Assembly: GCA_951406725.2 (NCBI GenBank)
Contig: OX597827.1
Span: 43,772,001 to 43,836,000 of the forward strand
Source of the DNA: Octopus vulgaris
Lineage: Eukaryota
Direction: 5' to 3'
DNA length: 64,000 bases
The notes under the pieces are model-generated. The model did no database searches. It was not told where the DNA came from and worked only from the letters and a program-made list of their open reading frames with translations. Numbering within the stretch: position 1 is the stretch's first letter; every line of letters starts with the position of its first letter. Positions 4,181-57,900 of the stretch are shown piece after piece. A program made the translations under genes and the position numbers.

Positions 4181-4640
4181 TTTTAAGTTATGGCTACAAA
4201 TTTTATAGAGAATTTAGAGCCAACATTGAAAGCTACATTTCGTATACGACTACATCTACGTAAACAATGTGATCGAATGTACAAAAATAAGCAATAGGTG
4301 TATATGCATATTTCAGTACTTATTGTGCTTCCTTCAGTACCATATCCATTTAATGTAATCGTTTGTATGTTATGATGGCAATAATATATATATATATATA
4401 TAAAATGTAGGATAAAATTTTTTTCGAAAATAAAAAAAATTTATCCTACATTATAGATTTAAGAGTTCACTTCCGGACTCTCTCACTCTGTGAGAGCCTC
4501 AGTTCAAATCGCACGTGTCTTGAATGGGCTGGAGTATTTCTATTTTGGATGTATTTGGAGTACTTAATTGAGCTCATGACTTAGTGTTTTGCTTCTTCCA
4601 TGGGTATGAGTAAGTATCTCATTTAGTTCTTTGCCACATT

Positions 4641-4693
4641 TATCACCGACGAAGGGAGGGTTCTCACAAACTAACCCTGAAATCGGTCCGATA
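4641..4693 (+). ncRNA. Minimal hammerhead-like motif (U4C variant)
   Basis: tatca-CCGACGA-AGGG...CCCT-GAAA-tcgg-TC-cgata, inside a roughly 400-bp AT-rich unit (4403-4810) that begins with a hairpin next to (TA)n. Confidence 0.55.
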
Positions 4694-5041
4694 TGGTAAT
4701 AATGGAATTTTTAAGAAATTTCTGTCGGCTTTTTTCGAGTAGCGTGCGTATTGTGATAAATTATATGGTAATGGATGGACATTATGTTCAATTTTCGGCA
4801 TATTTGGCATTAGAAATGTTTTCGTTTGCCCTTATTTATAAGTTGTTTATATATATATAAGTGTGTTGTGTGTGTGTGTGTGTGTGTATGTGTGTGTGTG
4901 TGTGTGTTTGTGTGATTGACCCTCCCGTCGTTAGACGACATATGAGGGTTCGAGAATTTCTTACAGTGATAAATTCGAAAGAAGAAGCACACTCTAAGAT
5001 GTAGAGCACTATATATTAAAAATGGGGAAGGCCGATTTACA

Positions 5042-5100
5042 GGATTACCTTAGGTTTCCCATCCATAAAGTGTTTAGTTTTATGGCGAATCGTCAGATCC
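5042..5100 (-). ncRNA. Hammerhead ribozyme (left arm of a fold-back)
   Basis: Minus strand: ggat-CTGACGA-ttcgCCATAAA actaaacac TTTATGGatgg-GAAA-CCTAAGG-TA-atcc. Confidence 0.7.
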
Positions 5101-5128
5101 CCCAAAATGATAGGCCAACAGGTTTTGG

Positions 5129-5188
5129 GGAATCTGACGATACGCCATAAAGCTAAACCCTTTATGGACAAGAGACCTAAGGTAATCC
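5129..5188 (+). ncRNA. Degenerate hammerhead ribozyme (right arm of the fold-back; GAGA instead of GAAA)
   Basis: ggaat-CTGACGA-tacgCCATAAA gctaaaccc TTTATGGacaa-GAGA-CCTAAGG-TA-atcc. Confidence 0.55.
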
Positions 5189-6250
5189 TGTAAGCCGGTC
5201 TTCCCCTTTTTTAACGTATAGATAGATAGATAGATAGATAGATAGATAGATAGATAGATAGATAGATAGATAGATAGATAGATAGATAGATAGACAGATA
5301 GATAGATAGATAGATAGATAGATAGATAGATAGATAGATAGATAGATAGATATACAGACAGATAGATAGATAGATAGATAGATAGATAGATAGATAGATA
5401 GATAGATAGACAGACAGATAGATAGAGATAGATAGATAGATAGATAGATAGATAGATAGATATACAGACAGATAGATAGATAGATAGATAGATAGATAGA
5501 TAGATAGATAGATAGATAGATAGATAGATAGATAGACAGACATATATATATATATATATATATATTAATCAAAATAAAAACATGATGCCAAGGATTCAGC
5601 GATACATCAGGTGCTTACAATTATCAAGTACTCACCCCGAATTTCTATATATATATATATATATATATATATAAAGAAATGGATATATATATATAAGGAA
5701 ATGGATATATATATATATATATATATATATATATATATAAAAGGAAATGGAGACTTTGAACACACAAAAGAATCAATTGATTTATATAATAGTCAATTCA
5801 ATTTTTCTGCATTCAGTCTCTCCATTTTCCTTATATTATGTTATTAAAATACTGTTCTCCCCATATCGAATGGATGAAAGCATCTATAATGACAAGTGGA
5901 ACTCCATAAGCGTTGACACTAGTGCTAACACAAATTAATGAAATCCAAAGTATGATACATTGATCGCTATGGAGCCAAACCGGTGTACGCTTGGATAAAA
6001 TGCATTCCTGTAAAAGAGCAACCTTTTTCCATTCGAAACTTGAAATATATATATATATATATATATATATATATATATATATATATATATATATATAGAC
6101 CTTTTCAACTATAATATATAAGTTCAGCAACAATTTAGATTCAAATGAATATGGTACTTAATTTAGATGCACCAGAGTTTTGTATGGTGTTATCCATAAA
6201 AATTTGTGGGGTGATTATAATCAAAAATAAGCAACAAGAATGATTCCGGT

Positions 6251-53990: not shown

Positions 53991-54952
53991 GCTCTCCAAC
54001 GCCGTTGACTCTTCACAAATACATTAAGATGCTTCTGAGAGAAAAAAAAATTGAGTCATAAAACAAAATCGTCCAATTTAGCCCGAACAGGCTGTAGATA
54101 TGAAACCTTGCATTGTATGGCGTGAGATAACGAGAGAAAAGCAAAGATGAGATAAAACATAAAATAATAACGAAGTGTAAATATAACAGAGACACAAAAC
54201 TGAGACATAATAATAATAATAATAATAATAATAATAATAATAATAATAATAATAATGCAGATAAAAAACGTCTGAATTTCTCCTTCATGATAAAAGGCAA
54301 CACAAGTGCATATATACATATATACATACAAATATACATATTTTATATATATATATATATATATATATATATATATATATATATATATATGTATGTATGC
54401 ATAAATATATATATATATGTATACATATATATGTGTATGTGTGTATACATATGGGTGTGTATGTATGTATGTATGTATGTATGTATGTATGTATGTGTCT
54501 ACATACGCAGATACATACGCATCTGTCTATCTATATATATATAGAATATATACGCACATACATATATATAGATGTATATATATATATATATATACACACA
54601 CACACATCTATATATATATATATATATATACACACACACATCTATATATATATGTGTATATAGATGTGTGTGTGTGAGTACAGACTCATGCACACATGCA
54701 TAAACATACGCGTGCATATTCAAATATACACAAATGTGTACAAAATTATATTTGCCAGCGTGTCTTTGTGTATCAGTGTATGTGTGTGTATGTGAGTGTG
54801 CGCGCGTGTGCACATGCGATCATCTCTCTCACTCAATCTTTCATTCTCTGTATGTATATGTACACATATTTACATGTGTCTGTTTGTGTGTGTATGTGTG
54901 TATGTGTGTGTGTGAACGTGTGTATGTATGTCTATGCACATATATATTTGTA

Positions 54953-55370
54953 CAGGCGTGGCTGTGTGGTAAGAGGCTTGCTTCCCAACCACATGTTTCC
55001 GGGTTCAGTCCCACTGCGGGACATCTTGGGCAAGTGTCTTCTACTATAGAAGGTACTTTGGTCGGTCTGCCTCGAACCAACCAAACCCTTGTGAATGGAT
55101 TTGGTAGACGGAAACTGAAAGAAGCCTGTCGTGTATATATGTGAGTGTGTGTCTGTGTGTGTATGTATGTATGTGTGTGTTTGTGTGTTTGTGTGTTTGT
55201 TTGTGCGTGTGTGTGTGCGTATTTGTGTGTTTGTGTTTTTCCCCAATAGCGCTTGACAATCTGTGTTGGTGCGTTTACGTCCGCGTAACTTAGCGGTTCG
55301 GTCATAGAGCACTAGGCTTACAAAGAATAAGTACTGGGGTCGAATCGTTCGACTAAAGGCAGTCGCAGCC
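54953..55370 (+). mobile_element. SINE family A
   Basis: Homolog. Confidence 0.8.
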
Positions 55371-55407
55371 AAAGAATACAAGAATATAATAAAATATAAT
55401 ATAATGT

Positions 55408-55778
55408 ATAGATAGATAGATAGATAGATAGATAGATAGATAGATAGATAGATAGATAGATAGATAGATAGATAGATAGATAGATAGATAGATAGATAGA
55501 TAGATAGATAGATAGATAGATAGATAGATAGATAGATAGACAGAAAGGCAGAAAGACAGACAGATAGACAGATAAATAGATAGATAGATAGATAGATAGA
55601 TAGATAGATAGATAGATAGATAGATAGATAGATAGATAGATAGACAGACAGACAGGCAGAAAGACAGACAGATAGACAGATAAATAGATAGATAGATAGA
55701 TAGATAGATAGATAGATAGATAGATAGATAGATAGATAGATAGATAGATAGATAGATAGATAGATAGATAGATAGATA
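55408..55778. repeat. (GATA)n microsatellite (others at 5219-5540, 7518-7686, 50942-51054, 51835-51926)
   Basis: Directly visible. Confidence 0.95.
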
Positions 55779-57509
55779 ACGCTCAGGAATGAAAAAGAGT
55801 CATAGGGAGACAATACGATAATGGTAAAAACAAGAGAAAGATAGAAGCGGGGCATGTTTAATACATTAGAATAACAAAATGTGATGTGCAAAACAGATTT
55901 ATAAAGTTTTGGCACATCCGATGATGGGCTTCAAAAAACAAACATTCAATGTAAATCTGGGTATATATATATATACATACATACATACATACATACAAAC
56001 ATACATACATACATACATACATACATACATACATATATATGTATGTATGTGTGTGTGTGTGTATACATATATATATGTATATATGTGCGTGTGTGTGCAT
56101 ACCTTTTTGTGAGTATATATATAATGTCTTTTACATGTTTCAGTCATCAGATTGCGGCCACGCTGGGGCACCGTCTTGAATTTTTAGTCGAATGAAATCG
56201 ACCCCAGTACTTACTTTTTAAGCCTCGAAATTATTCTATCGGACTAATTTGTCGAACTGCTAAGTTACGGCATGCAAACACACCATGTAATATCTACCTT
56301 TCTATCTATCTATCTGTCTGTCTATCTATCTATCTATCTATCTATCTATCTATCTATCTATCTATCTATCTATCTATCTATCTATATATATATATATATA
56401 TATATATATATATATATATATATATGTATGTATATGTATGTATGTATGTATGTATGTATGTATGTATGTATGCATGCATATATAAGACACCAAAGTATAT
56501 GTACGCCGCGATATGTGAGTAAAAAAGAATACAAAAAGGGGACAAGAAAAAATAAGGACGGGTCATTCGGAGTTTTCTCTCCTCGGTCGAGTTCCAGATA
56601 ATCTTTGCAGTTTCGGCTGGTTATACTCGTGACTGGTCCAATCTGGCCAGCCCCAAGGTCTGGCTTGGCAGAACACCGGTCACGTGGAAGAAGAGAAGAG
56701 AAGCAGAGGCAGAGGGATTGAAGAATTAGGAAGGGACGAGAAAGTAAAAAGAAATATAATATGTATTATCTATATGTGTGTGTGTGTGTGTGTGTGTGTG
56801 TGTGTGTGTGTGTGTGTGTGTGTCGTTCTTGCCTCATGTTTTTGCGAATGATACTAAGTAGCTATCAGGCGCAGGAGTGGCTGTGTGGAAAGTAGCAGGC
56901 TTACCAGCCACATGGTTCCGGTTTCAGTCCTACTCTACGTGGCACCTTAGGCAAGTGTCTTCTACTATAGCCTCGGGCCGACCAAATCCCTGTAAGTAAA
57001 TTTGGTAGACGGAAACTGAAAGAAGCTACTAATATACTTCGTTACTTTTAAGTACTATACACGTTTATACGAGAAGCTTTCTCAAGACAAAATCCTCAGT
57101 TTTGTAGGTTTCTACAGTATAACCACTTTAAGTAATATACACAGATCACTATTCTGAACTAATATTGCTTTTGTTTCAAATAATGAATTTTTACTCAGCC
57201 CACCAACTATTTGCGACACCAGTGATTTCTTTTTCTATTTCAGTCGTAGCTGATAGTGGATAGTTACTATCGATGACGTGCAAAGTTGTAGAAGGCTAGA
57301 TTTTAGCACTTCCACCGGTCGCTACTGTATACTTTTCCTCTACTGTTTATATACTTCTGTGCCCTTTGGCTCTATATGTCGATACAAGATGCTTTCTCAA
57401 GACGAACGCAAGAAATTGTTTAAAACAGTGATCCAATGAAAATTGAAAGACTGGAGTGATATCAGAAGTAAGGAAAATAGAGCAACGGATCACAGCTTTA
57501 TCTTATATT

Positions 57510-57900
57510 TTCATATTTCGGGTAAAATATCTCTTCGTCAGGAGAAAATGGAGTATGGTATTAAACTCGTATCATTTTCTCAAAGGCATAGAACGGGTTG
57601 TGTCGCGACAGGCATAGAATGATAGCATTACAGTAACCAGTCTACTTCGAGTAACTCACGTCGCGTGTTGATCGACTGTTAAAGTTCATAAATGGAGAAG
57701 GCTTCACAAATGGAGAGGGCTTCCTTTTTAGTGATGTATCTGTGTGTACGTCGTATTTCGTGCTTCTCCGTGCGGATATGTAGGTTTTGGATACTGCTTC
57801 CGATATATGGATGTTAACCATCGTTCACAGTTGTCGTTGCAATCCACTGGTTGATTTTTCTGACTGGAATTTCCTCACAGGGAAACCGAAATACACAATC
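57510..57900 (-). pseudogene. Decayed PLE 3' end: GIY-YIG remnant followed by a hammerhead-like motif
   Basis: The minus strand encodes ...PYIGSSIQNLHIRTEKH... (YIG.....L..R...H), then CTGACGA-a-gagatattttaccc-GAAA at 57516-57541. Confidence 0.45.

Follow-up and report, generated by a model that had tools for sequence, protein, structure and literature searches.

Penelope-like elements (PLEs) are known to scatter minimal hammerhead ribozymes through genomes, and retrozymes derive from PLEs. The available text of Cervera and de la Pena (2014; PMC4209133) describes such motifs with U3-A8, an extra base after A9 and a palindromic stem III, traces them to truncated PLEs, and reports inverted pairs, weak cleavage as dimers and 2,000-9,000 motifs per genome. 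Targeting of (TA)n has been published as well. The accessible part of PMC7229834 gives more than 6,000 motifs for a coral and up to 120,000 retrozymes for the axolotl. Here we analysed 64,000 nucleotides (nt) of Octopus vulgaris DNA (GenBank assembly GCA_951406725.2, contig OX597827.1, positions 43,772,001 to 43,836,000), in the following called the window, and searched the 2.8-Gb assembly to which it belongs (227 contigs). An initial annotation had flagged 15 hammerhead-shaped sites in the window and had taken them for a dense and diverse population of non-autonomous PLE derivatives. We hold with good confidence that minimal type I hammerheads reside here in the pseudo-long terminal repeats (pLTRs) and 3′ untranslated regions (UTRs) of PLEs, and that most copies are likely short leftovers of reverse transcription that started just downstream of the motif and stopped early.

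All 15 sites were located, each no more than about 90 nt from the position first given (on the minus strand, this position marks the 3′ end). Searches of the octopus genome assigned 13 of them, including the two initially rated as weaker (38484+ and 38960-), to ten families that are present in many copies and show the fold of a minimal type I hammerhead. The family cores of D, E, F and G were read from alignments of the 18-20 best-matching copies each. Of the two other sites, 48605 is single-copy and 57516 belongs to an old and weak family. The families had been described as unrelated in sequence; ten can be told apart, but A and B align with each other, and the proteins of H and M are 50% identical.

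Six families (A, B, E, F, H and M) are the 3′ UTR or pLTR ends of PLEs that encode a reverse transcriptase (RT) and a GIY-YIG endonuclease, in agreement with the PLE origin proposed initially. Their copies in the window are listed here, with the site in brackets:

4969..5216, both strands: inverted pair of family E (5096- and 5134+), hammerheads 5101-5041 (minus strand, intact core) and 5129-5189 (plus strand, decayed by A14G).
6098..6994, minus strand: family F (6335-), 5′-truncated 3′ UTR of a PLE that is Hydra-type by motif; hammerhead 6341-6251 with canonical core, long stem II loop and the palindrome ACAATTGT; H17 is G in this copy.
12772..12968, plus strand: short pLTR copy of family B (12822+), of a lineage that is Neptune-type by motif; hammerhead 12818-12852 with U4C core, an extra A after A9 and the palindrome ACGT.
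14725..14893, minus strand: short pLTR copy of family A (14845-), hammerhead 14850-14813 with A6U core, passing the variant-tolerant descriptor described below.
16975..17047, plus strand: fragment of family A (17013+), hammerhead 17009-17044 with a private G8A, ending just past stem I.
17736..17880, minus strand: short pLTR copy of family A (17853-), hammerhead 17857-17822 with A6U core and one stem II mismatch.
38850..39026, minus strand: short pLTR copy of family M (38991-), hammerhead 38995-38956 with U3-A8 plus A13C and a weak stem I.
42354..42517, minus strand: 5′-inverted pLTR piece of the family H insertion, broken off within stem III.
42483..43544, plus strand: 5′-truncated open reading frame (ORF) of a PLE that is Neptune-type by motif, 353 aa open.
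43683..43722, plus strand: hammerhead of family H (43690+) in the 3′ UTR of the ORF 42483..43544, with U3-A8 core, H17 at 43715, a 7-bp stem I and the palindrome ACCGGT.

For family H the link lies within the window itself. The ORF at 42483-43544 encodes the RT thumb, a CX4CX2C linker and a GIY-YIG endonuclease with CCHH-type cysteines and histidines; the hammerhead starts 140 nt past its end, and an inverted piece of the same end precedes it. Comparison to Pfam yielded for this ORF only a GIY-YIG match below the cut-off (E 0.016). A 658-aa copy of the H type has 858 relatives at E ≤ 1e-20 (8,000 candidates scored); nearly all of those listed carry RT and/or GIY-YIG Pfam domains, and bivalve names are found among them. 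Family H is young, since 33 of 40 scored places were identical over 121 nt. In family A the A6U hammerhead follows 465-840 nt downstream of the ORF end in 14 of 20 loci that were chosen by this end. Locus L289 contains a full pLTR-ORF-pLTR copy of M, and the order of ORF (RT-endonuclease), 3′ UTR and hammerhead is present for F in locus L292. An endonuclease end of the Neptune type lies upstream in 4 of 20 loci of the B lineage, chosen by the 3′ UTR of an older relative, and one of the Hydra type in 1 of 20 loci of E (L154), the E fragment being 44% identical to a Hydra-type protein. In the M copy (L289:4923-5100) the upstream hammerhead is immediately followed by the start of the open frame, whose first ATG lies about 140 nt past the hammerhead.

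The translations of H, M and A show the motifs of Neptune or Nematis, a CX2-5CxxC linker and a C-terminal CCHH-type GIY-YIG domain, as given for endonuclease-bearing (EN+) PLEs in the available text of Craig et al. (2021; PMC8557442); in decayed copies of the B lineage these motifs are partial. The endonuclease of F (L292) resembles the Hydra clade of the same study, with a CxC...C linker, no CCHH, and CxxC and CxH flanking conserved E and N. By these motifs A, B, H and M appear to be Neptune-type, with Neptune and Nematis taken together, and E and F Hydra-type. The hammerheads of Neptune and Hydra are called canonical in the accessible part of PMC8557442, whereas the putative Neptune-type families of the octopus have non-canonical cores. 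An origin from Naiad, with an N-terminal endonuclease and RT last, was rejected for every linked family, since the endonuclease is the last domain of each linked ORF. A second Hydra-type endonuclease family, for which no hammerhead was identified, was noticed at L292:3753-4490 and L298:6169-6624, and a GIY-YIG fragment of another PLE type lies near an inverted pair of E (L297:617-1198).

The copies also bear the marks of PLE insertion: 5′ truncation, an inverted 5′ copy, an optional tail and a (TA)n target. The available text of PMC8557442 likewise describes EN+ PLEs as targeting (TA)n, with 5′ copies in inverted orientation and tails that may or may not be present. A (TA)4 run was present within 250 nt downstream in 42 of 61 copies, compared to 24% of random positions, which supports the (TA)n targeting claimed initially. 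An inverted partner no more than 1.4 kb away was found for 22 of 32 E motifs. Copies of D, F, G and H start at scattered positions, whereas those of C, D, E and M terminate at either of two 3′ ends. The octopus motifs share with the metazoan minimal hammerheads, as described in the available text of PMC4209133, the type I fold, a stem I of 4-5 bp, an extra base between positions 9 and 10.1, the palindromic stem III, U3-A8, the fact that most motifs occur singly and stem from truncated PLEs, inverted pairs at distances of 100-700 bp and many families per genome. They differ from those of its main text in that A6U, U4C, and U3-A8 with A13C are fixed in families here. Two further families of the window are C and K:

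21911..22112, minus strand: copy of family C (22048-) with 5′ inversion, hammerhead 22052-22015, stem III ACTC-A-GAGT.
38439..38527, plus strand: family K (38484+), old (about 80% identity), hammerhead 38480-38522; the palindrome is decayed in this copy.

A route by which such copies could arise is suggested by in vitro work on a PLE of the anole (PMC11167929). In this system the protein nicks AT-rich DNA and copies mainly RNA that is still uncut. Reverse transcription begins at two internal sites, which determine the tail; the hammerhead is assisted by the protein, but insertion proceeds without it. By analogy, the octopus element protein would nick AT-rich DNA, and reverse transcription would be primed internally on uncut RNA, 100-250 nt past the hammerhead. 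Any insertion exceeding this distance would deposit a hammerhead, and reverse transcription would usually halt soon after the motif. An internal start combined with an early stop would explain why motifs stand alone, why copies are flanked by TA, and why inversions and tails occur. If the hammerheads cleave at all, two copies would have to pair through the palindromic stem III, probably together with the PLE protein.

Families D and G are of a different kind:

4402..4849, plus strand: family D (4646+), unit without ORF, about 478 nt long, carrying a short 5′-inverted tail and lying between TA runs; hammerhead 4640-4699, H17 at 4693, stem III ATCGG-T-CCGAT; U4C in this copy, canonical core in the family.
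17203..17397, plus strand: family G (17289+), part of a unit that lacks an ORF and measures about 347 nt; hammerhead 17284-17345 with canonical core, decayed in this copy.

The long 3′ end of D runs straight into its own 5′ start with a period of about 478 nt, and the exact junction occurs 41 times in the genome. Among the first 20 of 82 listed matches to a 5′ landmark of D, the unit's own 3′ end is directly upstream in 14 as judged by pattern and in 2 more as judged by eye; the remaining 4 stop within about 25 nt, and none lead into other shared sequence. Tandems with two hammerheads were found at 497-510 nt, and the longest ATG ORF of three copies had 56-73 aa. For G, 7 of 20 loci contain the 3′-to-5′ junction followed by the hammerhead, and the period measured 345-348 nt in 5; the exact junction pattern occurs 7 times, and no tandem with two hammerheads was seen in the loci inspected. 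A link of D to endonucleases in L131 and L130 was dropped, because the one in L131 is on the opposite strand and the one in L130 is downstream. Judged by their sequence organisation, D and G are likely retrozyme-like, non-autonomous units, and an ORF-bearing parent of D or G elsewhere in the genome is possible. The non-autonomy initially ascribed to the whole population is thus supported for D and G only, which are ORF-less and have a fixed head-to-tail junction.

Like the animal non-LTR retrozymes of PMC7229834 and Li et al. (2026; 10.64898/2026.07.22.740005), as far as the available texts describe them, D and G lack ORFs, are joined head-to-tail, carry a type I hammerhead and exist mostly as monomers or partial tandems. 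Unlike these retrozymes, their hammerheads are minimal rather than canonical with loop-loop contacts, they bear direct marks of PLE insertion (5′ inversion, two 3′ ends, TA target), D is with about 478 nt longer than the 170-400 nt quoted, and no long arrays were seen. Both units would likely be carried in trans by PLE protein, from tandem or circular RNA.

Since the hammerheads of A, B, E, F, H and M lie in the 3′ UTR of an ORF, 5′-truncated ends of autonomous elements are the simpler reading of these families. Several observations weigh against the explanation as a whole. A tblastn search of the loci of C, K and J found no parent for these three families; the region upstream of K resembles a decayed endonuclease end by eye, and that of C is non-coding over more than 500 nt. 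The connection of B to PLEs runs via older relatives with a canonical core and not via the U4C subfamily itself, that of E is one locus, and the clades were assigned from motifs rather than from a tree. Stem covariation, which had been named as a check, was seen in part. The named structure was paired to 92.4% in 59 copies of A and B, compared to 88.1% after shuffling and 21-48% when the structure was slid along the sequence, but this covariation is essentially one event between families, a swap in one stem I pair between A and B (G-C in 22 copies, C-G in 16), and stem II lay within the search anchor. Further compensatory swaps between related copies occur in H, G, C and two other families. 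Finally, the clustered 5′ ends of A and B are poorly explained by random truncation.

This clustering bears on the explanation that competes best with truncation, namely that the short copies of A and B propagate themselves as non-autonomous solo pLTRs, with transcription from an internal promoter and mobilisation in trans. We consider this conceivable but doubtful. A copies reach at most 96 nt upstream of the core in 18 of 19 cases and 814 nt in one; 15 of the 19 starts cluster at about 45-96 nt, often at TCAGTC, and many B copies start at a single common point. Recurring starts are seen in loci such as L005, L006, L249, L086 and L094. They could mark a transcription start, which may apply to TCAGTC in A, a sequence that we take to be initiator-like. 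The clusters suggest a fixed RNA start, which could lie in the upstream pLTR of autonomous transcripts or in solo pLTRs that are themselves transcribed. That ORF-less lineages exist in this genome is shown by D and G. However, long ORF-bearing copies of A carry the identical A6U hammerhead (in the 14 of 20 loci mentioned above), no fixed head-to-tail junction was seen in A or B, and an internal start of reverse transcription in the upstream pLTR of an autonomous transcript, as the anole system suggests (PMC11167929), would yield the same short class. We therefore prefer truncated autonomous ends; the clustered starts leave room for non-autonomous amplification in A and B only.

A further question is whether the variant cores still cleave. 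The strict type I core (C3-U4-G5-A6-N7-G8-A9 ... G12-A13-A14, A15.1-U16.1, H17) is the majority state in D, E, F and G. A (A6U), B (U4C) and M (A13C) depart from it and are hammerheads by shape with a variant core; U3-A8 is a family-level state in H and M. U4C was present in about two thirds of the first 100 listed B-type matches. The palindromic stem III, which comprises 12 nt in G, and the core variants had both been pointed out initially. The core variants are family-level features in A, B, H and M, but several variants in the window reflect private decay after insertion, as in 5134+ (A14G), 17013+ (G8A), 17289+ (A15.1C), 22048- and 38484+. The G at H17 in position 6258 (6335-, F) is also private, with A in 19 of 20 family copies, and U4C at 4646 (D) is a minority state (3 of 20 copies).

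Family A has 15,730 exact copies with A6U in the genome, versus 180 with A6. In 71 copies that were collected without the core as anchor, position 6 was U in 66, N7 took all four letters (29, 23, 13 and 6 copies), and H17 was A or U in 70, C in one and never G. Three subfamilies of A differ at 3-11 of 28-30 upstream and at 8-18 of 94-97 downstream columns; N7 and H17 differ as well (5 of 6 comparisons), but none of 30 constrained columns does. About 15 of these 30 columns lie outside the search anchor; since about half of them are the anchor itself, the evidence for selection is only moderate. The A6U core probably represents a ribozyme that has been kept, albeit a slow one. A natural change at core position 6 is known from the A6C hammerhead of Bcep176 (Perreault et al. 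2011; PMC3088659), which is, in the accessible text, a single phage sequence with C, whereas U is fixed in more than 15,000 retroelement copies here. In the literature on octopus hammerheads, A6U hammerheads and core variants we found no report of A6U within the main text covered; the terms ribozyme and hammerhead had 0 matches in the available text of PMC13282606.

Alternatively, the variant cores (A6U, U4C, and A13C combined with a weak stem I) could have lost cleavage and survive as relics, or as RNA structures to which the PLE protein binds; this appears unlikely to us. It would fit the slow cleavage of the natural A6C hammerhead, below 0.1 per min in the accessible text of PMC3088659, and the anole PLE, which inserts in vitro unimpaired by hammerhead mutations and for which reads ending at the cut site were absent (PMC11167929). 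Moreover, every inserted copy spans the cut site, and family M, with A13C and a stem I of 2-3 bp, is nonetheless young and abundant. The A subfamilies nevertheless diverge at N7, at H17 and in the flanks while their constrained columns do not, and H17 is never G, which is the pattern of a working hammerhead. The GUA cut triplet of E, H and M (window 5046, 43715 and 38962) overlaps a sequence resembling a 5′ splice site. A function as splice donor found no support, as the sequencing contigs on H and M had no splice joint, and no circle joint was present in the contigs aligned to these two families. For M, two runs show a rise in summed contig depth past the cut site; since RNA ends are not visible in contigs, we drew no conclusion from this rise.

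In order to quantify the motifs, we used a variant-tolerant descriptor that allows U3-A8, U4C, A6U and A13C. It was written after the window had been inspected; an independent sample of 800 kb was drawn from 29 contigs as 80 stretches, each 10 kb long and placed at a round coordinate. In the window the descriptor matched 4 times, versus once in 30 dinucleotide shuffles; 200 kb of flanks had 6 matches versus 0 in four shuffles, and the sample had 22 versus 1 in four shuffles and 2 in reversed sequence. The shuffle control that had been called for is thus clearly in favour of a high density. A strict-core descriptor found 0 sites in the window, where 4 of the 15 copies pass the variant-tolerant one; in the sample, 6 of 22 matches have a canonical core and 16 carry U4C, A6U or U3-A8, so that, as predicted, a strict-consensus search misses most motifs. 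Scaled from 22 per 0.8 Mb, about 77,000 intact-shaped motifs are present genome-wide (Poisson range 48,000-117,000, copies clumped). As an estimate of at least 77,000, this is unlike the approximately 2,000-9,000 per genome given in the available text of PMC4209133. Counting by homology to the window families gave 37 copies in the sample, or about 130,000 in the genome, with 57 of the 80 stretches empty. Exact counts over the whole genome are of a matching order: the A core occurs 15,730 times, B-type cores 14,422 times, D 488 times, and U3-A8 cores with ACCGGT 13,601 times versus 174 for the reversed pattern. The window is denser than average (14 homologous sites in 64 kb versus 37 in 800 kb), in part because the families were chosen from it.

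Chance matches in AT-rich, microsatellite-rich DNA have practically no standing as an explanation next to 22 matches versus 1 in four shuffles, 13,601 versus 174 for the reversed pattern and the constant placement behind PLE ORFs, even though 48610+ is single-copy and J is weak; a chance origin is refuted for 13 of the 15 sites and may hold for 48610+. These two sites are:

48605..48655, plus strand: single-copy, hammerhead-shaped site (48610+) with poor stems II and III and without family support; searches of the octopus genome by DNA and by pattern returned only the site itself.
57500..57545, minus strand: family J (57541-), an old, low-copy, degenerate hammerhead-like motif with just 7 other matches (72-83% identity), in which the first pair of stem I is mismatched (C.A).

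Among the genome-wide matches listed, the U3-A8/ACCGGT pattern spans many distinct families that differ in their stem II sequence. At least four more hammerhead families, two canonical and two with U3-A8, were observed outside the set of the window, with compensatory changes in stem II between related copies (L029:7552 (-), L043:5753 (+) and 5092 (-), L047:2234 (+), L051:8152 (+), L058:96 (+), L055:2073 (+) and L057:8996 (+)). The window is rich in microsatellites (229 tandem-repeat rows), which dominated a general repeat search, and of 610 Rfam matches the 150 listed were all microRNA models on microsatellites and uninformative on hammerhead models. Long degenerate (TGG)n/(GTA)n tracts at 20175-29684 lead to a strong GC skew. 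Dispersed inverted repeats other than microsatellites, with 88-97% identity, lie at 35391-35745 and 44686-45040 and at 30341-30587, 26734-26961 and 49729-49975; they are probably copies of other transposons. No tRNA genes were found in the window.

Tentatively, we put forward as a real possibility that the octopus genome holds about 100,000 PLE-borne hammerheads, mostly with non-consensus cores, that the U6 core of its largest family is under selection and cleaves as a protein-assisted dimer, and that D and G are circular-RNA retrozymes with a PLE insertion signature. About three quarters of the intact-shaped motifs in the sample escape the strict consensus, and published counts for such genomes are therefore probably low. 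Trans mobilisation of retrozymes has so far rested on co-occurrence and phylogeny; the PLE insertion marks on the ORF-less head-to-tail units D and G provide anatomical support for it. The youth of family H makes it suitable for bench work, and the A6U core fixed in family A offers, in nature and at high copy number, a way to test if cleavage is required of PLE hammerheads at all.

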